Below are positions 7,903-47,981 of a stretch of DNA of 64,000 nt, piece by piece; position 1 is the first letter of the stretch, and each line of letters opens with the position of its first letter. Origin of the DNA: a bacterium (lineage in GTDB: Bacteria; UBA8248). A model generated the notes under the pieces. That model was not told the DNA's origin. It did not search any database and saw only the letters and a list, made by a program, of their open reading frames with translations. The stretch is taken from the NCBI GenBank assembly GCA_965207065.1, contig OZ242260.1:2976001-3040000 (forward strand). The letters run 5' to 3'. A program made the position numbers and the translations under genes.

Positions 7903-9108
7903 ATGTCCGAATCGCAAGCCGCAGCACCTTTGAGCGGGTTCCGGGTGCTGGATTTCACCCAGGTCGTCGCGGGCCCTTTCTGCGCCACGATGCTGGCCGA
8001 CATGGGGGCCGAGGTGGTGAAGATTGAGCGCCCAGGCCACGGGGACGATACGCGCCGCATCACCCGCTACAAGGACCGCGAGGAGCACGAAGATTATTTT
8101 TATGCGAACAACCGCTCAAAAAAGAGCATCGCCATCAACATGAAGACCGAAGCGGGCAAGGGCGCGGTGCGCGCTCTGGCGGGCGAGGCCGATGCGATCA
8201 TCGAGAACATGGCGCCCGGAAAGCTGGCCGAACTCGGCTTGGGCTTTGAGGATGCCCGCGCGGCGAATCCCGGAATCGTCTACTGCTCGCTCTCGGGCTT
8301 CGGGCAGAGCGGCCCCTACCGCGACCGGGTGGGGCTCGACCCGATACTGCAGGCCGTCTCGGGCGTCATGAGCGTAACGGGCAACGAGGACCCCACCCAG
8401 ATAGGCGCGCCGCTCGCCGACGTGCTGGCGGGCATGTTCTCCGCCTACGCCATCGTGAGCGCGCTCCACGCGGTCAAGCGCGAGGGGGAGGGCCGCTACA
8501 TCGACGTGAGCATGCAGGACGCCATGGTCGCCGCCCTGGGGCCGCGCATGGGCGAGACGCTCCAGGCGGGCGTTTCCCCCGGGCGGCACGGCAACGAGAA
8601 CCCCATGCGGGTGCCCGCGAACACCTACCGCACGAGCGACGGAGAGTACGTGACCGTCATCGTGCAGCACGACGGCTTCTGGCCGGGCTTTTGCCGCGCG
8701 CTGGAGGTGGAGGACTGGCTGGAGGATGAGCGATTTTCGACGGCGCGGGCGCGCGTGGCGAACCGCGACGCCATCAACGAGCGGGTGTCCAAAATTTTCG
8801 CATCGCGCACAATGGCCGAGTGGGAACAGCGCCTGGAAGCCGAGCGCGTGGGCTTCTCCGCCGTGAACGACTACGAGCGCGCGCTCGCAGACCCCCAGGT
8901 CGAGCACCGGGGCCTCATCAGGCGCGTCGAGCATCCCGTATCGGGAGAGATTCGCGTGGTGGGCGCGCCGTGGATCATGAGCGGGGCGCAAGCCGAAGTG
9001 AAGCCGCCGCCCCTGCTCGGCCAGCATACCGCCGAGGTGCTTGAGCAGTGGCTCGGCTGGCCGGAAGAGGAAATCGCGCGTTTCATGGTAGGGGAGGGGG
9101 TAAGGTAA
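7903..9108 (+). CDS. CoA-transferase family III (CaiB/BaiF)
   Basis: PLSGFRVLDFTQVVAGPFCATMLADMGAEVVKIE, NRSKKSI, SGFGQSGPY, catalytic Asp region APLAD, PPLLGQHT. Confidence 0.93.
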   Translation: MSESQAAAPLSGFRVLDFTQVVAGPFCATMLADMGAEVVKIERPGHGDDTRRITRYKDREEHEDYFYANNRSKKSIAINMKTEAGKGAVRALAGEADAIIENMAPGKLAELGLGFEDARAANPGIVYCSLSGFGQSGPYRDRVGLDPILQAVSGVMSVTGNEDPTQIGAPLADVLAGMFSAYAIVSALHAVKREGEGRYIDVSMQDAMVAALGPRMGETLQAGVSPGRHGNENPMRVPANTYRTSDGEYVTVIVQHDGFWPGFCRALEVEDWLEDERFSTARARVANRDAINERVSKIFASRTMAEWEQRLEAERVGFSAVNDYERALADPQVEHRGLIRRVEHPVSGEIRVVGAPWIMSGAQAEVKPPPLLGQHTAEVLEQWLGWPEEEIARFMVGEGVR

Positions 9109-29288: not shown

Positions 29289-29323
29289 AAAACGCCCCCC
29301 GACATTCGCCGGAGGGCGCTTTT
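29289..29323. terminator. Probable bidirectional intrinsic terminator between convergent queE and AOR genes
   Basis: AAAACGCCCCCCG...CGGAGGGCGCTTTT. Confidence 0.65.
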
Positions 29324-29339: not shown

Positions 29340-31238
29340 TCAGGCGGGAAGGGCGATTCCCTCTTCCTCGGTGAGCCTGTCCCAATTCGCCTCGGTTCGT
29401 TTTTTGAGTTCATCCATGAATTCGCGTGTCATGAAGCTGGGCATTTTGACGTTTTCATTCGCCCCTTCATAGACGCGGGAGGGCACGTCGTATTCCTCGT
29501 CGGTATAGCCCACCTTTTTCTCCAGCAGGCGTCCTCTCAGGTAGGAACGCCGAATCGCCTGGTTCACGTCTTCTTCCGTCAACGAGACGCCGAACATATC
29601 GTTCAGGCTGTCGACGATATTCTCGTTGGGCGCGCCCGCGAATTTGCAAGTGCCGATGAGGTCGTCCCTCGTATAGTAGATGCCGTTCTGGATGGCGTTT
29701 TCCCAGTAATCGATGTCCGTCTGCTGGCCGTCGAGGATGAGGAGCAGGAACGTGCGCATGCTCATGTGGCCGCCTGCCAATGCCCAGGGGTAGCCGGGGT
29801 TTGTTTCGGGCAGATAGGCCGGGTATTCGAGGCCCTTGCCCTGCATAGCGAAGGATAGGTCGCCACACTGCTGGGCCAGACGCATGGTGCCCTGGGCCAG
29901 TTCTTCACACTCGCCCGCCGCTGCTTTGCGGATCAATTCATCCATCTTCCTGGCGTCGCCGAAGCGGATGTCGTCGAGCACGGGTTTGTCGGGGTTTTTC
30001 TCGTTCCACTCCATGGCGTAGCTTATGGTAGCGCCCAGGCTGATGGCGTCGTAACCCATCCGGTCGCCCAGTTCGACGAGATCCAGGGATTCTTCCGCAT
30101 CGTAGACGCCGCAGTTCGCCGTGATGAGGTCGAGCGGTTCATAGTCGAACTTGACCCTGAATTTTCCTTTTTTCGCCCGCCTGCCTTCGGCCGTCTCGCC
30201 CTCGGGCCTGTCGTAGATGTTTTTATGGCACGCGATGCCGCACTTGAAGCAGGATTCATCCTTGATGACGTAGGGTTCTTCAAAGCTGCCCCGGTACAGT
30301 TGAACGGCGTCATCGTTCCCCGGCGCCCAGAAGTTCCTCTCGGGCAGACAGCCCATGGGGTGGAGACCCGCGATGTTTCGCCAGGTTCCACCGCCGCCGT
30401 CCGCCTTATGGGCGTCTCGGTAGTTTTTGGAACCTGCGCCCCGTGAGATGACTTTGTTGGCCTCTTTGACGACATTCGTGACGGCGGCTTTGTCGTCTGG
30501 CGACTGCGCGACGATGGCGATGAGGTTTTTGGAACCCATCACGCCGCCGAAGCCGCCGCGTCCGCAGAACCTCGGCTTGCATTCCCTCGTTTTGAGCTGG
30601 TTTTCCGTGCTCAAGACAATGGACGCCATGCGGTTCGTCTCAAAATTCTCCCCCGGCGGGCCGATGACGGCGAAGTGCGCATCGTCGTATTCATCGGCGA
30701 GCGCCATCATTTTTTCATGCGAGTCTTGGCCCACAAGAGGAGAGGCGTCCACGAGTTCCAGGCTCGGCGGGCCGCCCAGGGTGTCGCTCTTGATAACCAG
30801 TGTGACGGGCTTCTCGCTCCTGCCGGTAAAGATGATTTCATCGATGCCCGCGCAGGCAACCTTGGTTCCGAATTTGCCGGAGCCTGCCGAGTACATAGCG
30901 GAAGGTGCGCCTGCGAGCGTGCTCTTGAGCGGACTGTAGCCGCCAAAGAACGTCCTCAGCCCCGTCATGAGGTTCGTACCAGAAAAACAGCCAAGTTCCA
31001 TGACGAGCGGGGCGGAAGGGGCATAGGGGTCAGATACGTCGTGATGGGAGAGGATTTTGAAAATCCTGCCGATCCCGCCCAGAAAATCCTCCAAATCCTC
31101 ACAGGATTTGTCTTCAATCGTGATATTTCCACTGTCCAGCTCAACGGTAGCGCTTCTATACTTGTAATCAGTTGCCGAGTTATTCCCGTTTCTGGCGTCT
31201 GTCCACATTTTTCTGCCTGCCTCCGATGAATATGCCAC
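29340..31238 (-). CDS. Aldehyde:ferredoxin oxidoreductase family (W/Mo-bis-pterin, 4Fe-4S)
   Basis: FLGGIG, YSPL, IGPPGEN, GRGGFGGVMGSKNL, CFKCGIAC, DRMGYDAIS, KGLEYPAY and DLIGTCKF motifs. Confidence 0.9.
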   Translation of the reverse strand: MAYSSEAGRKMWTDARNGNNSATDYKYRSATVELDSGNITIEDKSCEDLEDFLGGIGRIFKILSHHDVSDPYAPSAPLVMELGCFSGTNLMTGLRTFFGGYSPLKSTLAGAPSAMYSAGSGKFGTKVACAGIDEIIFTGRSEKPVTLVIKSDTLGGPPSLELVDASPLVGQDSHEKMMALADEYDDAHFAVIGPPGENFETNRMASIVLSTENQLKTRECKPRFCGRGGFGGVMGSKNLIAIVAQSPDDKAAVTNVVKEANKVISRGAGSKNYRDAHKADGGGGTWRNIAGLHPMGCLPERNFWAPGNDDAVQLYRGSFEEPYVIKDESCFKCGIACHKNIYDRPEGETAEGRRAKKGKFRVKFDYEPLDLITANCGVYDAEESLDLVELGDRMGYDAISLGATISYAMEWNEKNPDKPVLDDIRFGDARKMDELIRKAAAGECEELAQGTMRLAQQCGDLSFAMQGKGLEYPAYLPETNPGYPWALAGGHMSMRTFLLLILDGQQTDIDYWENAIQNGIYYTRDDLIGTCKFAGAPNENIVDSLNDMFGVSLTEEDVNQAIRRSYLRGRLLEKKVGYTDEEYDVPSRVYEGANENVKMPSFMTREFMDELKKRTEANWDRLTEEEGIALPA

Positions 31239-31341: not shown

Positions 31342-32928
31342 TTAGAAAGCTACAGGCTCTTGAAATTCTCCAAAAACGCCACGGAGCACGTCCGTTATCT
31401 CCCCGATAGTGGCATATGCTTCCACCGCCTCGGAAATCGCCTCCATGAGATTCTCATCGCCTCGGGCGGCGTCTTCCAGGCGTTTGAGACTTAGTTCTGC
31501 CTGTGAAGTGTCTCGCTCTTTCTTCAATTTATTCAGTTGTTTCTTCTGACGCTCTTCAAGCGCAGGATCAATCGTGAATATTTCTTGTGCGGGAGGCTCC
31601 TCCCGCATATATTTATTTACGCCGACGATAGTCTGCTCATGTGCATCCACCGCTTTTTGCCAGCGGAAAGCGCTCTCTGCTATCCATTTTTGCACTACGC
31701 CTCTTTGAATGCACTCAACCATGCCGCCGCGTTCTTCCACGTCTTCAATAATTTGCGCCATTTCATTTTCCATGCTTGCAGTTAAATTCTCCAGATAATA
31801 TGAACCACCAAATGGGTCCGCCACATCGGGGACGCCGCTTTCATGGGCAATGATCTGCTGGGTGCGCAGGGCGAGAAGAGCGCTATCTTCGGTCGGCAAG
31901 GCCAGTGCTTCGTCATATGCACAAGTAAAGATGGTTTGGGCGCCTCCGAGCACGGCGGAAAGTGTCTCGTAGGTGACTCTGACGATATTGTTCTCGGGTT
32001 CTTGTGCAGTTAGCGTACTCCCGCCACAAACGACGCCGAAGCGGAATAGCCAGCTTCTCTCGTTTATAGCGCCAAAACGCTCACGCATGATTTTTGCCCA
32101 AAGCGTCCGCATGGCTCTGTATTTGGCGATTTCTTCGAAAAAATCCATGTGGGTGTAAAAATAAAAACTGAGCCTGGGGGCGAACTCGTCGATATCAAGT
32201 CCGCGGTCCAGACATCTCTCTACGTAAACGATGGCGTCCGCGAGCGTAAAACCGCCTTCCTGGACGGCAGTTGCGCCGGCATCCCTGAAATGAGCTCCTG
32301 CAGCGCTGATGGTATTGAACCTCGGAGTGTTTTTCACCCCGTATTCAACAGTATCGACGATCAGCCTTAAGGATGGCTCGGGCGGGAATATCCATGTGCC
32401 GCGGGAAACATATTCCTTCAGAATGTCGTTCTGGATGGTGCCGGTTAGTTGAGCGGGCGAAACGCCTTGTTTCTTGCCGACTGCGACGTACATGGCATAA
32501 AGGATGGCGGCCGTTGAGTTGATGGTGAAGGACGTGCTGATCCTGTCGAGCGGAATATCTTGAAAAATGGTCTCCATATCCGCCAGTGAGTCGATGGCTA
32601 CCCCGACTTTGCCGACTTCGCCGGATGATTTTTCATTGTCGCTGTCGAGTCCCAGTTGTGTCGGGAGGTCGAGGGCGACGGAAAGCCCGGTGTTCCCCTC
32701 GTCTAGTAGAAAGCGGTATCGCTGATTCGTATCTTCGGCGGTTCCGAAACCCGAATACTGGCGCATCGTCCACAAGCGTTTTCTGTACATCTCGGGGTGA
32801 ATGCCGCGCGTGAGAGGATATTCGCCTGGTTTGCCAGGGGAATTGCCCGGAGGCAAATCTCTCAGGCCGTACGTGTTTTCAACGGCGAGACCTGAACGAG
32901 TTTTTATCTGTGGGGGTTCTTTTCCCAT
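31342..32928 (-). CDS. B12-dependent acyl-CoA mutase, substrate-binding large subunit (methylmalonyl-CoA mutase family, no cobalamin-binding domain)
   Basis: PGEYPLTRG, WTMRQYSGFG, GLSVALDLPTQ, GTIQNDILKE, YDEALALPT and DPFGGSYY motifs; no DxHxxG. Confidence 0.92.
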   Translation of the reverse strand: MGKEPPQIKTRSGLAVENTYGLRDLPPGNSPGKPGEYPLTRGIHPEMYRKRLWTMRQYSGFGTAEDTNQRYRFLLDEGNTGLSVALDLPTQLGLDSDNEKSSGEVGKVGVAIDSLADMETIFQDIPLDRISTSFTINSTAAILYAMYVAVGKKQGVSPAQLTGTIQNDILKEYVSRGTWIFPPEPSLRLIVDTVEYGVKNTPRFNTISAAGAHFRDAGATAVQEGGFTLADAIVYVERCLDRGLDIDEFAPRLSFYFYTHMDFFEEIAKYRAMRTLWAKIMRERFGAINERSWLFRFGVVCGGSTLTAQEPENNIVRVTYETLSAVLGGAQTIFTCAYDEALALPTEDSALLALRTQQIIAHESGVPDVADPFGGSYYLENLTASMENEMAQIIEDVEERGGMVECIQRGVVQKWIAESAFRWQKAVDAHEQTIVGVNKYMREEPPAQEIFTIDPALEERQKKQLNKLKKERDTSQAELSLKRLEDAARGDENLMEAISEAVEAYATIGEITDVLRGVFGEFQEPVAF

Positions 32929-32935
32929 CTTGCGA

Positions 32936-33715
32936 TTATCTCCCCTTGAAAACGGGGTTTCGCTTTTCGAAAAATGCTTTTACCGCCTCATCATGATCTT
33001 CTGACACCCAAAGATCTGCAAATAGCGACGATTCCATACCCTTCGTTTCATTCAGTGTATTTTCTAATCCGAATAAGAGCAATTCCTTCAAAGAGCGGAT
33101 AGCCGTCGGCGCGCTTTTGGTAATTTCATCCACCATCGCTTTCGCGACGCGAAGACCGTCTCCTTTGTGTACCACGGCGTTGGCAAGTCCCATCTTGAGC
33201 GCATCTTGGGGGCTCAGTTCTTTGCAGGTGGTCAACAATTCCATCGCGCGTCCATAGCCGATAGCGCGGAGAAGACGACCCCCGCCTCCCCAACCCGTCA
33301 TGAGGCCGACGCGGGCTTGCTTGAAGCTCATGTAGGCGTGTTCTTCGATTATTCGCATGTCACAGGACATGGCGATTTCGGTCCCACCGCCCAGAGCGTA
33401 TCCATTCAAAACGGCGATGACAGGCACTGGCAATTCGGACAGACGCCCCAGGATTCCCTGCATGCGTCTGCTCATCCCCAGACCCGCCTCGTGAGATTCA
33501 AATGACTGTAGCCACTTCAAGTCGCCGCCTGAGCAGAACGCCTCCTCGCCCGCACCCGTGAGGACGACGGCTCTCAGTTCTCGAGATGCTTCGAGGTTGA
33601 CCAGGGCGTCTGAGAGCCCCTGCATGATTTCTTCGTTGATGGCGTTGCGAACGTTTTTTCTGTTGAACTTCAGGATGGAAAGTCCGCCCTCGGCTTCATG
33701 AATAAAATCGGGCAT
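32936..33715 (-). CDS. Enoyl-CoA hydratase/isomerase (crotonase) superfamily protein
   Basis: AFCSGGDL, NGYALGGGTEIAMSCDMRI and AFFEKRNPVFKGR motifs. Confidence 0.9.
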   Translation of the reverse strand: MPDFIHEAEGGLSILKFNRKNVRNAINEEIMQGLSDALVNLEASRELRAVVLTGAGEEAFCSGGDLKWLQSFESHEAGLGMSRRMQGILGRLSELPVPVIAVLNGYALGGGTEIAMSCDMRIIEEHAYMSFKQARVGLMTGWGGGGRLLRAIGYGRAMELLTTCKELSPQDALKMGLANAVVHKGDGLRVAKAMVDEITKSAPTAIRSLKELLLFGLENTLNETKGMESSLFADLWVSEDHDEAVKAFFEKRNPVFKGR

Positions 33716-33771: not shown

Positions 33772-34716
33772 TTACCAGTATTTCTCGTAATGGATGTTTC
33801 CCTTTGTCTGGCCATAGTCCATCGTGAAGCCGCGATCTTCCATGATCTGAATGACGCCCGGCGCGCCTTCGGGCCATATTTTCTCGCCTTCCCGAACTTT
33901 CGGGATACCGATCATGTCTGGGTTTCCGCACAAGAACAGATGCGTGTTCGCAGGGTCCATCTTGCGGCCGATGTTTTCCTCGAACATGCCCGTGGCCAGA
34001 TAATCCTGCACATATATCTTGTTGTTGATGGTATCCGCCTCGCGCGTGGTGAGCGCGTGATATGAGAGCGTGGGATATTTCTTCTCGAGTTCTCTATAGA
34101 GGGGTTCGTATGCAAGGTCGTTATTGTATCGAACGACGTTGATGCTGGCGATTTGCCCTTTGTAGCCCGTGCGAAGAAGCTCCCAAATCATGTGGTTATG
34201 CGGACCTTCTCCCGTCCCCGTGCCTGCGAAGACGACGAGAGAATTGTCATCGTTACGAATATCGTTCATGCATTCGAGCGTGTATTCACCAGTAAATTTC
34301 TGGCCCATGTGAATACGATCGCCAGATTTCAGGAGGAAGAGCCTCGGGGTAAGAAGAGGCGCGGGCTCTCCTTCCGCACCGATGACCATGACGATGTAGA
34401 ATTCCAGAAAATCCAAATCATCCGGCGGAAACAGTTCTCCCGCTCCGTTGACTACAGGGTGGGACACGGAATAGGCGCGTCTTCCCAATCGCCTGATTCT
34501 CTTCTCGTCGAGTTCTTTTTCCTTGACAGCGTCTTCGTGGCGAGGCTCCCAATTTCCTAAGCCCAGCGTCGTATATTGCCCTGATTTATATTCGGGAAAG
34601 TCGAAATCGGGTTTTACGCGAAAACATGCGAGCATCTCATGCTGCCAGACGATATCCACGACTGTGGCGTTGTAGTGTTTTTCCCTTAACTCTAGTTTTG
34701 TTGCATCATCAAGCAT
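33772..34716 (-). CDS. fpr: Ferredoxin(flavodoxin)--NADP+ reductase
   Basis: GQYTTLGL, RRAYS, GTGTG, LCGNPDMI and C-terminal HYEKYW motifs. Confidence 0.87.
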   Translation of the reverse strand: MLDDATKLELREKHYNATVVDIVWQHEMLACFRVKPDFDFPEYKSGQYTTLGLGNWEPRHEDAVKEKELDEKRIRRLGRRAYSVSHPVVNGAGELFPPDDLDFLEFYIVMVIGAEGEPAPLLTPRLFLLKSGDRIHMGQKFTGEYTLECMNDIRNDDNSLVVFAGTGTGEGPHNHMIWELLRTGYKGQIASINVVRYNNDLAYEPLYRELEKKYPTLSYHALTTREADTINNKIYVQDYLATGMFEENIGRKMDPANTHLFLCGNPDMIGIPKVREGEKIWPEGAPGVIQIMEDRGFTMDYGQTKGNIHYEKYW

Positions 34717-34835: not shown

Positions 34836-35561
34836 TTATATCGTGATCGCCTCGAACGATACCGCAAATTTGTATCCGGCATGCTTCCCTGTTTCGATGG
34901 CCGCCTGGGTGAGAAAAGCGACAGAGTCGAACCCTTGCGCGAGATTGTCGATGTAGAGCTTATGGGCTTGTAAGGATGCGATTCCTGTATCGAGGTGCTC
35001 AGTGACATCCACGGCAATTGTGGATTCAGGAGAGCCGCTGAGCAAAATCATTCGAACGCCCGTCCAGGGTTCGAGTCCTTCGTCCAGTAGTTCGGGAAAA
35101 ATCCAGCGGTTTCCAGCATCGCGGCTCGCGTCCATCACGCCATAGGCGAGCCAGCGATGATCCGCCATGTTCAACGGGCCGCCCGGCCAGGTGAGGTGGT
35201 GGGAAAGCGTGATCACGATTTCAGGTCGGTAGGTTCTGATTTTCCGGGCGAGTTCGCGTCTTAAATCCAGATTGTACTCGATGATCCCATCCGTATAGCC
35301 CAGGAATTCGACATTTCCCACACCGACGATGGCGGCGCTTTTTATTTCTTCCTCTTCTCTCGCGGGGCCGGCTTCTTCCGGCGACATCCCGTCGATGCCC
35401 GCCTCGCCACTCGTCATGAGAATGTATGAAACTTCCTTACCTTGGGCCGTCCACCTTGCGACCGCGCTCGAGGCGCCGAATTCCATGTCATCCGGATGAG
35501 CCACGATGGCCAACGCTCGCTGCCAATTTTCATCGAGAGTAAGTAGTTTGTTCGCCGTCAT
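34836..35561 (-). CDS. PIG-L/LmbE family deacetylase
   Basis: VAHPDDME, TSGEAG, LGYTDG and ADHR motifs. Confidence 0.9.
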   Translation of the reverse strand: MTANKLLTLDENWQRALAIVAHPDDMEFGASSAVARWTAQGKEVSYILMTSGEAGIDGMSPEEAGPAREEEEIKSAAIVGVGNVEFLGYTDGIIEYNLDLRRELARKIRTYRPEIVITLSHHLTWPGGPLNMADHRWLAYGVMDASRDAGNRWIFPELLDEGLEPWTGVRMILLSGSPESTIAVDVTEHLDTGIASLQAHKLYIDNLAQGFDSVAFLTQAAIETGKHAGYKFAVSFEAITI

Positions 35562-37783
35562 TTTTTCACCTTTTTCACAAAAATGGGGCTGCTCCAGGCG
35601 AATGCTCCGTCTTCTTGCATCAACCTGATGAAGTAGGGGTTCCAGCCGTCATGAAAATCACTTTCATCGACGTCGAATATGACGTTCGTGTGAGGGTTCC
35701 CAGGCGTTGGGCTGATGCGCTGCACTTCCACTTGTTGGCGAACGCCGCCTGCATCCACCACATAGGGAATGGCCCCGATGGTATCGAGATTCACATCAAA
35801 GGAAACGACGTCGGTTTCAAAAAAAAGCGTTGCGCCTTCTCCGCCTGAAATACGGAATTCGACGCCGTCCGCATCCCCGGTCGTTCGGCTCAACCACCGG
35901 ATGCTCTGCTCATCGGCCGACTGTATGCCTTCCTCAAGATTATCCACTTGCCAGTCTCTGGGCTCTTCGATTCTCCCTTTACCGACCCGCAAACCTCCGT
36001 GCCAGTGGGTTTGGCGGTTGCGCTGGTGTATGCGGGCGCCGCTCCAGGAGACTCGAAACCAGACAGAATTTTGGGCAGCCGTATCTTTAGGGCGATAAGA
36101 GCAGATGGTTTGTGAGGCGCGCTTTAGCTCAATCGACTCAATCCCGCATTCGCCCGTTGCGCGGACTTTGAACACGGGCGGATCGGTGGATTCGAACTCC
36201 TCTCCCATAAAATGTTCGCCAGCCGAAAAGGAGAGATGAATTTTCTTGCCCGTCGTCGCATAGACGCGCCTGGCCTGGATCGCTTCCCAAAGGCTCTCGC
36301 GCGTGAGTTCTGTTGCATAAATGCAGGCGTAACCGCCATAGACTCCGAAAATAGCCGCTCCCGGGTAGCTCGCTCCCGGTCGACCCTTGTGCCCATCGCT
36401 CCCTGCCGTGATGCCCACGCGCCAACCCTTTTCCAGGGCTTCCTCCACGAACCATTCGAATCGTCCCCAGGAAGAATATATTTCCATGACGCGCTCAAGT
36501 TCTGCTTGGTGATAGTCCAGGCTCGCCCGCCGGCCCCCGATATGGGGGACTAAGGTGACGTCCCGGCTGCCTTCCAAGGCGCCGTAGAGTGCATCTAGGG
36601 GATACCTGTCCTTTTCCTGATCTGTCCAGTCCTCCAGTTGCCAGTGGCTGGTACGGTGCAGAGGGCCATCGTCGCCTAGATACATGACGTTCCTGTCCCC
36701 GCCCATACCCGTCACGGCGGACCATTCAACGCCCAGGAACGTAACGAAGCGTCCAGGTTCGTTGTATTTCCTCGTGGTCGCTCGAATGGCGCTCCAAGTG
36801 TCTTTCGTGACTTGAAAATCATTCCCCTGATGGCAGGAAAATTGCGCTCCGGCCATGTTACGGGCAAATGCGAAGTAGTCATCGACGGTGTTCGTGCCTA
36901 CCGTTTCCTCGCTTTGGCCGTGCAGATCGCCCCAGAATGGCCGCCACTGGTGGGTTTTCTCCATGGCGTATATGTAATTGCTGTATGCAGGAGGGATGTC
37001 GCCCCCTGCGTCACCTCGTATGCGCCCCCATTCCCCGGATTCCCAGAACAGATTCTCCAGGCGGACAACTGCTGGTTCGCCACGCTTGAATTGAACGGTT
37101 CCTGGCAGCCCCTCGCAGATTCCGCCCTCGGCAGCGAGCGAAACTTGCGCATCTATGCCGCGGCATGGATTTCCCCAGATGTCCTCGAGTTTCACCTGCA
37201 TCCAGGATGTCTCATCGGGTGCCTGTTCGGTCGGCCCGTGAATGACGAGGCGGGCGGGATTTCCCGGTACGATGGAAAAAGCGGGCGTATCGGCGGCTTC
37301 GATGAATCGATTCGAGCCGAAGCAATCAACGAAAAGCCTGAGGCGGAAATTTTTTTCGCAAAAGGTTTGAGCGCGGGTTCCCGCTCCGCCCCCGCTACGG
37401 TCTCCCAGAACGATAGTTACCGTATCGCCTTCCGCCAGATAGCTATCAAATACATCGATGGCCAGGCCTTGCTGCCAGGGCCTGATGTTCGATTTCGGAT
37501 CCCATCTAACCCTGAGCGAGGCGCTCCCGCTCGTACTTACACTCGCATAGTGAGGCTCACCGGGCGCGTCGGTTTGCGGCTTGGCCCAATCACTGGCGAA
37601 ACGTCGCGAAAGGACGATAGTCCCGCCATCATCCACGCCGTATCTGCCAACGTGGTAAGTAAGCTCCCACGTGCCCCATGCGCCTGCTTCCACTTCACCG
37701 GCGGGAGCGAGTTCGCTCCATCCCACCCATTCGCGAACCCAGGATTCACTCTTTCCGTGTCTGCCGTCAGGTGTCGTATCCAT
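35558..37783 (-). CDS. DUF3604-type PHP-domain metallohydrolase
   Basis: FWGDLHGQS, GVEWS, GGDRNV, PHIGGR, GSDGHKGRPG, ARRVYATTG and AWSSPIFV motifs. Confidence 0.82.
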   Translation of the reverse strand: MDTTPDGRHGKSESWVREWVGWSELAPAGEVEAGAWGTWELTYHVGRYGVDDGGTIVLSRRFASDWAKPQTDAPGEPHYASVSTSGSASLRVRWDPKSNIRPWQQGLAIDVFDSYLAEGDTVTIVLGDRSGGGAGTRAQTFCEKNFRLRLFVDCFGSNRFIEAADTPAFSIVPGNPARLVIHGPTEQAPDETSWMQVKLEDIWGNPCRGIDAQVSLAAEGGICEGLPGTVQFKRGEPAVVRLENLFWESGEWGRIRGDAGGDIPPAYSNYIYAMEKTHQWRPFWGDLHGQSEETVGTNTVDDYFAFARNMAGAQFSCHQGNDFQVTKDTWSAIRATTRKYNEPGRFVTFLGVEWSAVTGMGGDRNVMYLGDDGPLHRTSHWQLEDWTDQEKDRYPLDALYGALEGSRDVTLVPHIGGRRASLDYHQAELERVMEIYSSWGRFEWFVEEALEKGWRVGITAGSDGHKGRPGASYPGAAIFGVYGGYACIYATELTRESLWEAIQARRVYATTGKKIHLSFSAGEHFMGEEFESTDPPVFKVRATGECGIESIELKRASQTICSYRPKDTAAQNSVWFRVSWSGARIHQRNRQTHWHGGLRVGKGRIEEPRDWQVDNLEEGIQSADEQSIRWLSRTTGDADGVEFRISGGEGATLFFETDVVSFDVNLDTIGAIPYVVDAGGVRQQVEVQRISPTPGNPHTNVIFDVDESDFHDGWNPYFIRLMQEDGAFAWSSPIFVKKVKK

Positions 37784-43700: not shown

Positions 43701-44342
43701 CTAGTTTCGGTGCCTGGAGAATGCCTCACCAATGCTCATGCCTTTATCGAGTTCCGCGATGATTTTTTCTTCGATTTCCGCCAGCTCATCCATCTTGTCG
43801 ATGACTTCTTCGAGCCTTTCCCCGGGGATGACGACAACGCCGTTGACGTCGCCAAGAATGATGTCTCCCTGCCTCACCGCGACGCCCCCGCAATTGATCG
43901 GCTCTCCCACACTGATGGGAACCGTATACCCACCGCTGCCGTGAACCGATACCCCTCTGGCGAATACGGGAAAACCCGCCTGGCGGTGTTCTTCGATGTC
44001 CCTTGCCCTGCCGTCCAGGACGACGCCACCTAAATTCATCACCTTCGCGCGCGTGGTCATCATCCCGCCCCAGTTGGCCGTCGTGACTCCGGGCGGGATG
44101 CTGATGACGACGATGCTCCCCTCGGGCGCCGCGTCGATGTGGTGTACCTCGCGTTTGGGCAGCGGTCCGCCGCCGGCGGGAACCATTCGAACGTTATGGG
44201 CTTCCCCCACCATCCTGTAATCCGGGTCGGGCGACAACAGGATGATGTCGGGCATGTGGCCCCTGATTTTCAATTTGTCAAAAGCGTCCGCTACCTGACA
44301 GGCTGAATAGCCCCTTAAGCGATTTACCAAGTCATTGCTCAT
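43701..44342 (-). CDS. RraA/HMG aldolase family protein
   Basis: VADAFD, ANWGGMM, DGRARD, FPVFA and GDIILGDVNGVVVIP motifs. Confidence 0.9.
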   Translation of the reverse strand: MSNDLVNRLRGYSACQVADAFDKLKIRGHMPDIILLSPDPDYRMVGEAHNVRMVPAGGGPLPKREVHHIDAAPEGSIVVISIPPGVTTANWGGMMTTRAKVMNLGGVVLDGRARDIEEHRQAGFPVFARGVSVHGSGGYTVPISVGEPINCGGVAVRQGDIILGDVNGVVVIPGERLEEVIDKMDELAEIEEKIIAELDKGMSIGEAFSRHRN

Positions 44343-44427: not shown

Positions 44428-45180
44428 CTAAAAACGGAATTCCGTAAAGCGTACGCCATCCGGGTCGAGTTCCTCCAGGGCATCCAGTTCTTCGGCGCTT
44501 GGCGCGTGGGTTTGCGCCACGACGCTCGGGCGTTCCAGTTCGAAGCCGGTATTCTTGATCACTTCATCCACCGAGTGTCCAGGGTGAACACTGGCAATCT
44601 CGAGCCCGGTGGATTTTTTCTCGAACAAGGCAATGGGCGTCACCAAGTGGCTCAGTCTGCCTGATTGGGTAGAGAAGTCGACCCGGGGTACGAGAAATCG
44701 CCTGTCGTGCACAGTTCGCCATATGACGGTGCGTTTCACCTGAGGCATGATGACGGCGCCTCCCCCTCCACCGGGAAGCCTCACTTTCGGCTGGAACGGG
44801 TCGCCGATGTAGCTCATGTTGGCTCGCCCTTGTTTGTCGAGTTGAGCGGCTCCCAGGAAAGCCATGTCCACCCCGCCGCGCGCAAAAAGATCGTACATGT
44901 CCGGGTTGTAGAACATAGATGCCGCACCGTGGCAGAGTTCAGGGTCGGCCGTGCTGTTCGGCATGAAGCGCGGTTTTGGGTCCACCGAACCAGCGACTTC
45001 TATGAGCGAGCAATTGGGGGCATGTCGTTTCTTGGCCAAAAAGATCGCGATCATGGGAAGCGGGGAGTTAACCCCGTGAAACACATTCTCGCCGTCTTCG
45101 ATGAGGCGCGAGAGCGTGACGGCCATCTGGTTTCCGGCGCGGATTACGTGCTCGGGCAACGAGGCCAGGCGGCTGCCCAT
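44428..45180 (-). CDS. Class I CoA-transferase-fold beta subunit (GctB/PcaJ-like)
   Basis: FLGAAQLDKQGRAN, RLPGGGG, LVTPIALF and SVHPG...NTGF motifs. Confidence 0.88.
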   Translation of the reverse strand: MGSRLASLPEHVIRAGNQMAVTLSRLIEDGENVFHGVNSPLPMIAIFLAKKRHAPNCSLIEVAGSVDPKPRFMPNSTADPELCHGAASMFYNPDMYDLFARGGVDMAFLGAAQLDKQGRANMSYIGDPFQPKVRLPGGGGGAVIMPQVKRTVIWRTVHDRRFLVPRVDFSTQSGRLSHLVTPIALFEKKSTGLEIASVHPGHSVDEVIKNTGFELERPSVVAQTHAPSAEELDALEELDPDGVRFTEFRF

Positions 45181-46802: not shown

Positions 46803-47981
46803 TTAGAGGCTTAATGCGGCCCTGCTGACCGTGAGTTCGGTTTCTCCGAGAAGCTCCGATGTCGTGAGTTTACCGCTCATCACCGCTATCAGTTCTTTTT
46901 CGAGCAGATCTCTCGCCTCATCGATTCGCATCGTCCCCTCCATGACGCCGCTGATGTCCACGTCGATGTTCTCGGCCATCGACCGCGCGGTACGGGGATT
47001 GCCGGTCACTTTGATGGTGGGAGAGATGGGATGGCCGATGGGGTTGCCGATTCCGGTCGAGAAAACGATCGCCTGCGCTCCGCTGGCCGCCAAAGAGGAA
47101 ATGTTCTCTACGCCCGCGCAGGGAGCGTCGGCGAAGATGGTGCCTTTCTTCGAAGGACGCTCTCCCACACCGACGACTTCGACAATGGGGTGACTGCCCG
47201 CTTTCTTGATGGCTCCCAGGCTTTTCTCCTCGATGGACGACAGACCGCCCCGGATGTTATCCGGCGCCGGGTTCGAGCCGATGAAGTCGACGCCGATGCT
47301 TTCGGCGTAATCGACGGCGCTCTTTGCGGAATCGATGATTTTTCGCGCCGTTTTTTTGTTTGTAGCCCGGCGGGCGAGTAGATGCTCGGCGCCCACGATT
47401 TCCAGCGTCTCGGAAAAGATAACCGAACCCCCCGCTTCCACGACTCTGTCGGCGACCATGCCCGTCACGGGGTTCGAGATGACGCCGCTGGTCGTATCCG
47501 AGCCTCCGCATTCCGCCCCGATGGTGAGTTCGCCCAACTCACAGCGGACTCGCTTGGCCGATGCGAGATGGGCGGAAAGTTTCGTGGCGAGTTCCACGAC
47601 ATGCGAGGTGGTGCTGAGCGTGCCTCCAATCTCCTGGATGTTCACGGCTTCTATGGGCATCCAGGGAGACGTTTTTGCGGCTACTTCCGCGATGGCGTTG
47701 GCGCTCTTGGGTTCGAGGCTCACGATGATGGCGGCCCCGACGTTCGGGTGGGCGGCGGTGTGTCCCATAACCCGCCAGTGTTGCGTCTCGTCCTCGCCCA
47801 TCAGGGCGCGTCCGAACGAGGTGTTGACAGGGGTGGCGTCTCGCACCAGCGAACCGATTCTGCGGACGATGGGGTTGGAATTGTCCATTCCGCTGACGAT
47901 GGCGAGATGATTCCGGCCACCCGGAGGACCTTCAAGTCTCCTGTAGCCCCAGAAAGTGGGAGTTGCTTTTTTCCGGGCCAT
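46803..47981 (-). CDS. UxaA/GarD/SuyB family lyase, large subunit (sulfolactate sulfo-lyase beta-like)
   Basis: FWGYRR, HPNVGA, ECGGSDTTSG, FSET, GGLSSIEEKSLGA and FSTGIG motifs. Confidence 0.85.
   Translation of the reverse strand: MARKKATPTFWGYRRLEGPPGGRNHLAIVSGMDNSNPIVRRIGSLVRDATPVNTSFGRALMGEDETQHWRVMGHTAAHPNVGAAIIVSLEPKSANAIAEVAAKTSPWMPIEAVNIQEIGGTLSTTSHVVELATKLSAHLASAKRVRCELGELTIGAECGGSDTTSGVISNPVTGMVADRVVEAGGSVIFSETLEIVGAEHLLARRATNKKTARKIIDSAKSAVDYAESIGVDFIGSNPAPDNIRGGLSSIEEKSLGAIKKAGSHPIVEVVGVGERPSKKGTIFADAPCAGVENISSLAASGAQAIVFSTGIGNPIGHPISPTIKVTGNPRTARSMAENIDVDISGVMEGTMRIDEARDLLEKELIAVMSGKLTTSELLGETELTVSRAALSL

Follow-up and report, generated by a model that had tools for sequence, protein, structure and literature searches.

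Which thioesters can the B12-dependent acyl-CoA mutases rearrange, and how far can their active site be adjusted? To our knowledge, the specificities are few: methylmalonyl-CoA, ethylmalonyl-CoA, isobutyryl-CoA, pivalyl-CoA and hydroxyisobutyryl-CoA mutases are known, and phenylsuccinyl-CoA and hexylmalonyl-CoA mutases have been proposed. Here we consider an acyl-CoA mutase large subunit gene at 31342..32928 (minus strand) of a 64,000-nucleotide stretch of contig OZ242260.1, hereafter the window, from a 4.48 Mb single-contig genome related to metagenome-assembled genomes (MAGs) labelled Nitrospinota. We lean towards the view that its product is the catalytic subunit of a distinct clade of dicarboxylyl-CoA mutases, which would act on a succinyl-CoA or malonyl-CoA carrying a bulkier, hydrophobic substituent.

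The closest solved structures are those of HcmA (4r3u, E 2.3e-154), human methylmalonyl-CoA mutase (MCM; 2xij, E 2.1e-139) and the P. shermanii MCM (1req, E 1.2e-124). MCM (EC 5.4.99.2), represented by P. shermanii MutB (1REQ), human MMUT (2XIJ) and E. coli ScpA/Sbm, has the same fold as the window mutase (E 1e-124 to 1e-139), has Tyr89, Arg207, Gln197, His244 and Glu370 in common with it, and presumably performs the same radical 1,2-shift. The difference in architecture is that in the clade the B12 domain is on a separate protein. HcmAB of Aquincola tertiaricarbonis (PDB 4R3U), the best-scoring solved structure, has the same split large/small architecture, but HcmA has Ile and Gln at the positions of Tyr89 and Arg207, and keeps GYH / RFHCQT / HTN. 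Two other split mutases have been described, and because of them the chemistry of bulky dicarboxylyl-CoA mutases has a precedent: the phenylsuccinyl/benzylmalonyl-CoA mutase IaaGH of the Aromatoleum aromaticum auxin pathway, which works with the family-III CoA-transferase IaaL (PMC8360864), and ActD/MatB of actinonin/matlystatin, for which conversion of hexylmalonyl-CoA into 2-pentylsuccinyl-CoA has been proposed (PMC5719088). In their bulky aryl or alkyl dicarboxylyl-CoA substrates and their split subunits they resemble what we propose for the clade, the comparison being one of published descriptions. By the same descriptions the next enzyme of the iaa route is an acyl-CoA dehydrogenase, whereas the clade operon has a crotonase, and ActD/MatB differ in belonging to biosynthetic clusters with crotonyl-CoA carboxylase/reductase (Ccr) and an epimerase.

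The mutase and its substrate pocket

The open reading frame is translated without a break into a TIM-barrel, substrate-binding protein of 528 aa. It matches the complete PF01642 profile (residues 9-520 against profile positions 1-512 of 512; E 4.8e-206; 685.7 bits, cut-off 22.1) and, with 685.7 bits against a cut-off of 303.8, TIGR00641, the acyl-CoA mutase N-terminal catalytic domain. These full-length matches above the cut-offs place it among the adenosylcobalamin-dependent acyl-CoA mutase large subunits. A profile search found no B12-binding domain within the 528 aa. Judged by its profiles, the product is a B12-dependent acyl-CoA mutase catalytic large subunit with a complete barrel.

Residues were numbered by phmmer alignment to the P. 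shermanii chain 1req_A, where the chain index plus one was accepted as the literature number because the residues named Tyr89, Arg207 and His244 all fit. On this alignment Tyr89 (Y58), Gln197 (Q166), Arg207 (R176), His244 (H213) and Glu370 (E340) are kept. In MCM, Tyr89 and Arg207 contact the free carboxylate of the substrate, Gln197 and His244 the thioester region, and Glu370 the adenosyl ribose. Changed are Ser241 (A210), Tyr243 (A212), Glu247 (D216), His328 (G298), Gln330 (V300), Thr331 (C301), His364 (F334) and Asn366 (C336), so that of the residues diagnostic of MCM the mutase has Tyr89, Arg207 and His244, and has Ala, Gly, Val, Cys, Phe and Cys for Tyr243, His328, Gln330, Thr331, His364 and Asn366, respectively. 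Replacement is thus by Ala, Gly, Val, Cys or Phe at polar Ser241, Tyr243, His328, Gln330, Thr331, His364 and Asn366, which face the retained residues from the opposite side of the pocket. The corresponding motifs in the translation are MRQYSGFG, KEYVSRGT, ISAAGAHFRDAG, FRFGVVCGGS and TIFTCAYDE. The original prediction, made from the DNA letters and their translated reading frames, had named a B12 acyl-CoA mutase, which the full-length PF01642 match and the TIGR00641 score bear out; every motif it quoted is present in the translated frame, and the 1req alignment agrees with the Tyr89, Gln197 and Arg207 that it held to be retained and with the Tyr243Ala, His328Gly, Gln330Val and Asn366Cys that it held to be changed.

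A distinct clade of acyl-CoA mutases

Are these replacements peculiar to one genome? A word-indexed search of 5.8 billion proteins gave 8000 scored hits, the best 120 of which were examined (60-92% identity). Gly328 and Phe364 are present in 120/120, Ala243 in 119/120 (the remaining one has Ser) and Val330 in 119/120, while position 366 is Cys or Ala. Because the best 120 homologues carry them, the altered motifs are a clade signature, neither chance nor a sequencing artefact. Source names are given for few of these 120, and include Nitrospinota, Candidatus Tectomicrobia, Methylomirabilis/Methylomirabilales, Binataceae and 'Deltaproteobacteria'. The mutase frame stays open, with 84-93% identity within the genus and 70-78% at the level of the family, and 33 of the 51 sampled genomes of the phylum have a match that is 70% identical or more and whose frame is open, as purifying conservation in the lineage would have it.

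To define the residues that separate the clade from MCM, 121 clade members were compared with 39 MCM-type sequences chosen by their canonical motifs, a specificity position being one with a residue at least 93% fixed in the clade and a different residue at least 80% fixed in the MCM-type set. There are 11 such positions: Ser241Ala, Tyr243Ala, Glu247Asp, His328Gly, Gln330Val, Thr331Cys and His364Phe, with four further fixed changes, Met165Phe, Tyr210Trp, Phe287Tyr and Leu325Phe; Asn366Cys/Ala also distinguishes the clade from MCM. In the 39 MCM-type sequences, Tyr243, His328, Gln330, Thr331 and His364 show no variation (1.0), and Asn366 is part of the HTN selection motif; since the set was picked by motif, this invariance is partly by construction, which is not true of the fixation in the clade.

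A FastTree phylogeny (LG+gamma, midpoint root) was built from 165 sequences and 490 columns, two of 167 sequences having been dropped for gaps. All 24 motif-bearing leaves are monophyletic with no foreign leaf among them (SH-like support 0.99); two unnamed representatives, whose motifs are different again, form the sister group (support 0.71). The MCM-like, isobutyryl-CoA mutase (ICM)-like, HcmA-like (including Xaut_5021) and ethylmalonyl-CoA mutase (ECM)-like anchors are all outside. Through its variants of three motifs (AGAHFRDAG, RFGVVCGG and FT(C/A)A) and its place in the tree, the window mutase belongs to this clade. Substitution of Tyr89 by Phe, Ile or Leu and of Arg207 by Gln marks the isobutyryl-, 2-hydroxyisobutyryl- and pivalyl-CoA mutases; the window mutase keeps Tyr and Arg, and the ICM-like (QF / AQK) and HcmA-like (QI / AQK) sequences fall outside the clade. 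The original prediction had held that the pocket matches neither MCM, ECM, ICM nor 2-hydroxyisobutyryl-CoA mutase (HCM), and this is true of all such-like sequences aligned; the phylogeny that it proposed as a check puts the mutase in a clade of its own and inside no MCM-, ECM-, ICM- or HCM-like group. Its statement that ECM has His328Gly/Asn366Pro fits a protein of Tritonibacter mobilis that is unannotated and is ECM-like by inference. The mutase, its carboxylate clamp and its unmatched pocket therefore stand, and the prediction is supported in part, the bulkier substrate being a proposal; what it overlooked is the conservation of the pocket across a whole clade, the operon that belongs to it, and the lack of an adjacent small subunit.

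In a genome scan, clade members made up 24/80 loci, all from one lineage, and the other 56 were MCM- or ICM-type. A metagenome scan, which used a pattern common to all mutases, had the clade motif in five of the 80 loci listed, two of which (L098 and L100) are too short or badly called. Full-text searches of main articles found no paper on the clade. As far as sequence comparison goes, the clade is distinct and widespread, with no experimental characterisation found, and it may be identical with the family of IaaGH or that of ActD/MatB. The family near the query also holds dozens of other unnamed pocket variants (representatives P0123-P0271). One further 'methylmalonyl-CoA mutase' has nearly all pocket residues replaced (TQV / CVGR / SAQL / RMMTSP / TTPL): it is encoded on a Sphingobium sp. 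TomMM7A plasmid (AP027312.1, 239091-242205; locus L095), which provides it with a small subunit and a MeaB of its own, and its surroundings include a P450 and a 7-alpha-hydroxysteroid dehydrogenase.

The operon in cultured bacteria and its crotonase

By tblastn against a collection of plasmids, the clade is also represented in bacteria that have been cultured, namely Paraburkholderia sp. 22B1P, P. largidicola, P. caribensis MBA4, Diaphorobacter sp. HDW4B, Sulfitobacter dubius, Marinobacter sp. M3C and Streptomyces sp. N50. The four proteobacterial genera, which come from four families among the Burkholderiales, Alpha- and Gammaproteobacteria, have the same operon order, namely an IclR regulator, a crotonase, the mutase large subunit, the B12 small subunit, a family-III CoA-transferase, a GTPase of about 300 aa and a transport gene. 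The GTPase is MeaB-like, being 33-40% identical to E. coli ArgK, and the CoA-transferases that adjoin clade mutases are orthologous (50-75% identity). The last gene encodes a TTT, TRAP or TAXI-TRAP solute-binding/transport protein, except in Marinobacter, which has an adenosyltransferase instead, and where IclR was not seen and IS elements lie upstream; Paraburkholderia has an extra MFS transporter gene divergently upstream of the operon. Streptomyces N50 has the mutase, a family-III CoA-transferase and a glyoxalase-4 (epimerase-type) protein. Three metagenome loci offer variations: one (L096) has a Rieske oxygenase, the crotonase and the mutase, followed on mixed strands by a family-III CoA-transferase, a luciferase-like monooxygenase and a short-chain dehydrogenase/reductase (SDR); a second (L097) has the crotonase, the mutase and the B12 subunit; and a third (L099) an SDR, the mutase, a luciferase-like monooxygenase and a family-III CoA-transferase.

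The proteobacterial operon is reminiscent of the E. coli scpA-argK-scpB-scpC module, with which it shares four functions: mutase, G-protein, crotonase-fold enzyme and CoA-transferase. The parts are different, however, because the CoA-transferase of the clade is of family III and not ScpC-type, and its crotonase is not ScpB-like.

In the window, the crotonase-fold protein (32936..33715, minus strand; 259 aa; PF00378, E 1.6e-56) is encoded 7 nt upstream of the mutase gene. Other clade members have its orthologue in front of the mutase, the partners being 30-58% identical, and the crotonase adjoins the mutase in loci L096, L097, L176 and L183-L186. The first catalytic Glu is kept in 7/7 aligned partners (GGGxE; GGGTE in the window protein), and the second is absent from 7/7. 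In the 4/4 partners that were formally aligned, F131 and Q133 are invariant, and Q133 aligns with the catalytic Glu of the solved hydratases 5zai, 5jbw and 5z7r. A Glu to Gln crotonase immediately upstream, which is a trait of the clade, is thus found at 32936-33715 (minus strand). With its second catalytic Glu replaced, the partner is unlikely to be an ordinary hydratase. The seven partners have in common a Trp...His pair close to the C-terminus, which is found neither in ScpB nor in the crotonase next to a variant mutase paralogue described below. Assignment of the crotonase as a ScpB-type methylmalonyl-CoA decarboxylase was rejected, there being no specific likeness at 21-28% identity.

The locus in the Nitrospinota-affiliated genome

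On the minus strand, the genes around the mutase run in the order DUF3604, PIG-L, Fpr-like, crotonase, mutase and AOR-like. The DUF3604 protein (35558-37783, minus strand; 741 aa) is encoded with a 4-nt overlap with the gene for the PIG-L-type deacetylase (34836-35561, minus strand), which is directly upstream of the gene for an Fpr-type ferredoxin/flavodoxin-NADP(H) reductase-like protein (33772..34716, minus strand; 314 aa; PF00175, E 2.4e-10). The latter, 56 nt upstream of the crotonase gene, has 8dos as its best PDB match (E 8e-16) and also matches the E. coli-type Fpr 1fdr. A divergent protein of the aldehyde:ferredoxin oxidoreductase (AOR) family (W/Mo-pterin) is encoded 103 nt downstream of the mutase gene (29340..31238, minus strand; 632 aa; PF02730 and PF01314), and its best PDB matches are AOR structures (9mqx, E 6.7e-34; 1aor, E 4.7e-32). 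It was also considered as a BamB-type benzoyl-CoA reductase, which was rejected since 4z3w matched at E 3.1e-9 over the N-domain only, against E 6.7e-34 for AOR. Just past this gene is a terminator-like hairpin (29289..29322, minus strand; 15 pairs, 9 of them G-C, and a T-rich tail), which by its sequence likely marks the end of the transcription unit. Because the number of terminator-like sites in the scan was not above that in shuffles (14 against 12.3 +/- 3.5), only this hairpin was used, on its position and strength; the promoter scan likewise gave counts not above shuffles (9 against 5.8 +/- 2.2). No cobalamin riboswitch or member of any other Rfam family was found in the window at the gathering threshold.

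Comparison with 24 related loci (mutases 84-93% identical, plus two at 73%) shows which of these neighbours matter to the lineage. The crotonase and AOR-like genes flank the mutase in 24/24, and the Fpr-like gene is upstream in 22/24, contig ends having truncated the other two. Close relatives keep the DUF3604 and PIG-L genes, which a Tectomicrobia locus whose mutase is 73% identical (L035) lacks. From this conservation, the core unit of the lineage is the Fpr-like, crotonase, mutase and AOR-like genes. The AOR-like protein is 76-99% identical across the 24 related loci and is the best conserved of the neighbourhood, with 90-99% in 22 close relatives against 84-93% for the mutase, and with 76-77% in the two remoter loci, where the mutase has 73%; yet its kinship with any solved AOR is distant (E 6.7e-34).

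There is a weak hint of cluster expression. Contigs from two metatranscriptome runs of one study and from one poly-A RNA run of a second study touch parts of four cluster genes, with DNA carry-over possible; a fourth run, from a third study, also matches the cluster, its RNA label being a guess. On the mutase, contigs from three RNA-labelled runs are 95-100% identical, as are all contigs on the cluster bar one X19 contig on the AOR-like gene (90-95%). The RNA-run contigs are short and bridge no two genes, and gaps in their coverage carry no meaning.

How is the mutase supplied with its B12 subunit? The genome has four PF01642 genes for three stand-alone B12 small subunits. The canonical MCM-type paralogue, which has all the standard motifs and stands among housekeeping genes, flanked by ymdB-like and alaS genes, is also unlinked from any small subunit. 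The HcmA-like paralogue is part of what is, by its sequences, an apparent 2-hydroxyisobutyryl-CoA mutase system (G000:C1:2613821-2618456, minus strand), in which the large subunit (QI / AQK, GYH, RFHCQT, HTNG) is accompanied by a MeaB-like gene and by a small subunit 81% identical to Xaut_5018. The further variant paralogue (G000:C1:1802184-1803836, plus strand), like the HcmA-like one located outside the window, keeps Tyr89 and Arg207 and has SATH / KFSTGN / NMAC; it neighbours a B12 small subunit, a family-III CoA-transferase, a crotonase and an acyl-CoA dehydrogenase, and it belongs, together with representative P0128, to another unnamed clade. Encoded 133 kb from the window mutase (G000:C1:2873880-2874692) is an orphan small subunit whose DxHxxG motif (DGHDRG) is intact, and the genome has a second MeaB, also unlinked. 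By tblastn there are about 19 family-III CoA-transferase paralogues, unusually many for a 4.5 Mb genome.

Elsewhere in the window, at 13477-14394 (plus strand), a eukaryote-like 305-aa protein consists almost entirely of ankyrin repeats (Ank_2, E 9.3e-47). Ankyrin-repeat proteins of this type are often reported in symbionts. Near each other are genes for an RraA-like aldolase (43701-44342, minus strand), a CoA_trans (family I) subunit-like protein (44428-45180, minus strand) and a galactarate/altronate-dehydratase-like protein (46803-47981, minus strand), which may form a separate acid-sugar or diacid catabolic group.

A candidate substrate and its alternatives

What substrate would fit such a pocket? 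The bulkier hydrophobic substituent is proposed because polar residues have given way to small or hydrophobic ones, by analogy with the His328Gly of ECM, and because of the operon context. In the reaction, the CoA-thioester group of a dicarboxylic acyl-CoA that carries a substituent larger than methyl or ethyl would migrate in a radical 1,2-shift, so that a 2-substituted succinyl-CoA and a (substituted-methyl)malonyl-CoA are interconverted. In Proteobacteria the clade mutase would act within a catabolic operon, in which the acid is imported, activated by CoA transfer and then rearranged; the product would be handled by the non-canonical Glu to Gln crotonase, possibly with decarboxylation, and passed on to ordinary acyl-CoA metabolism. 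In the Nitrospinota-affiliated genome the mutase would borrow an unlinked B12 subunit, most likely the orphan 133 kb away, and the unlinked MeaB. With the AOR-like and Fpr-like proteins as neighbours in this lineage, the acid may come from an aldehyde, which is a guess from adjacency alone.

Several observations weigh against this proposal. The size and polarity of the substituent are read from residue chemistry, and four of the 11 clade-fixed changes (Met165Phe, Tyr210Trp, Leu325Phe and His364Phe) add bulk, so the pocket has been reshaped and not simply enlarged. Positions 328, 330, 364 and 366 may line the adenosine cavity and not the substrate. The standard SGYH / R.H.QT / HT(N/D) set is present in only 36 of the 132 full-length 50%-identity representatives nearest the query, and remodelled pockets are therefore common in this unexplored part of the family. 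A B12 small subunit, a family-III CoA-transferase, a MeaB-like GTPase and a transporter are adjacent neither here nor in any of the 24/24 related Nitrospinota/Tectomicrobia loci. The orphan small subunit is 57% identical to the canonical MCM small subunit against 55% to the clade small subunit, so that by identity it might serve the MCM-type protein, the window mutase or both. The family-III CoA-transferase in the window (7903-9108, plus strand) was rejected as the cognate partner on its 31-34% identity to the operon-type enzymes, among which identity is 50-75%; the best of the approximately 19 paralogues reaches only 41%. Decarboxylation by the crotonase is a guess, given that the protein lacks specific likeness to ScpB.

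A fuller route can be drawn, although we regard it as tentative and rather doubtful. The clade would be the catalytic core of an as yet undescribed, Sbm-like pathway for decarboxylation of substituted succinates, in which a 2-alkyl- or 2-arylsuccinate is taken up, activated by the family-III CoA-transferase, rearranged by the mutase to a substituted malonyl-CoA and decarboxylated to an ordinary acyl-CoA by the Glu to Gln crotonase, which would be a crotonase-fold enzyme of a new type. The Nitrospinota/Tectomicrobia mutase and crotonase pair would have been rewired to the AOR-family and Fpr-type enzymes, the acid being made in place from an aldehyde. Candidate substrates for such a route would be fumarate-addition metabolites leaking from anaerobic hydrocarbon degraders, or alkylsuccinic acids of fungi and lichens.

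The alternative that survives best, though we think it somewhat improbable, is a dicarboxylyl-CoA that is different in another way, its radical carbon bearing neither a long alkyl nor an aryl group: for instance one with a second C2 substituent (dimethylmalonyl-CoA type, with a quaternary carbon), a C5-C6 diacid that is branched or unsaturated, or one whose polar substituent is held through water. Tyr243 lies beside the substrate C2 in MCM, and its loss could free room there; a crotonase with a single Glu (Glu to Gln) would be in keeping with an isomerase whose substrate is an unsaturated diacyl-CoA; and transporters such as those of the operon (TTT, TRAP and MFS) are typical for small di- and tricarboxylates. 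The uniformly apolar replacements (Ala, Gly, Val, Cys and Phe) speak against a polar substituent; C2 and C3 substitution fit the evidence alike.

Could the clade instead be a split form of ethylmalonyl-CoA/methylsuccinyl-CoA mutase, its extra changes being neutral or tuning, as for instance in methylsuccinate or ethylmalonate catabolism? Opening of the pocket wall in ECM was reportedly found by Erb et al. in 2008 to admit a larger group on the radical carbon. The comparison was made with the sole ECM-like anchor in the tree, the fused, 666-aa Tritonibacter mobilis protein (L093), whose label comes from its length, taxon and motifs (SYH / RYGVQV / QLPA). This ECM-like (Ecm/MeaA) protein shares with the window mutase Tyr89/Arg207, His328Gly, the F-R-aromatic-G-V motif (FRYGV against FRFGV) and the loss of Asn366, and a crotonase-fold ethylmalonyl-CoA decarboxylase, known from mammals, would suit the partner gene. 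Yet ECM combines His328Gly with Asn366Pro and keeps Tyr243 and Gln330, and the mutase has only His328Gly of this set, the clade having Ala, Val and Cys/Ala where the ECM-like protein has Tyr243, Gln330 and Pro366. Of all anchors, the ECM-like protein is also the one farthest away in the tree (patristic distance 2.15; the others are at 1.35-1.62), so that tree grouping does not join it to the mutase, and neither does co-occurrence with Ccr: none above the cut-off was found in the genome (best 105 bits, against 378.55), which disfavours a role in the ethylmalonyl-CoA pathway. We consider this explanation unlikely.

Less likely again, to the point that we give it little credence, is the reading as another isozyme of methylmalonyl-CoA mutase whose pocket has drifted. 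Source databases label the clade homologues 'methylmalonyl-CoA mutase (family protein)', and the carboxylate clamp and His244 are intact. However, the mutase scores 583.6 bits with the NCBIfam MCM equivalog NF006944, under its cut-off of 876, and the same genome has the canonical MCM-type paralogue, two reasons against taking it for an ordinary MCM. The Tyr243, His328, Gln330, Thr331 and His364 of the 39 MCM-type sequences are all replaced, and the alternative residues are 98-100% fixed from phylum to phylum, a sign that another pocket has been selected for. That the gene is a relic, catalytically dead or regulatory, with an orphaned, partnerless large subunit as its product, as the want of an adjacent B12 subunit, MeaB or CoA-transferase in the genome or in 23 close relatives might suggest, is hardly credible against its open frame and identity (84-93% in the genus, 70-78% in the family), the retention of all checked cofactor- and substrate-anchoring residues, the orphan small subunit with intact DxHxxG and second MeaB elsewhere in the genome, and a canonical MCM paralogue that is just as unlinked from a small subunit.

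Implications

The clade is, from its fixed residues and its place in the tree, a well-defined specificity class of B12 acyl-CoA mutase, found here with a lineage-specific AOR-family neighbour and without its own small subunit. Because annotation labels its members methylmalonyl-CoA mutase throughout, they are probably mis-assigned when the metabolism of Nitrospinota, Methylomirabilis, Binatia, Tectomicrobia and many Proteobacteria is reconstructed. Members are also found in Paraburkholderia, Diaphorobacter, Sulfitobacter, Marinobacter and Streptomyces, which can be cultured, and the dedicated regulator and solute-binding protein there make the question of its substrate directly testable. A new specificity, if true, would add a carbon-skeleton rearrangement useful for pathway engineering.

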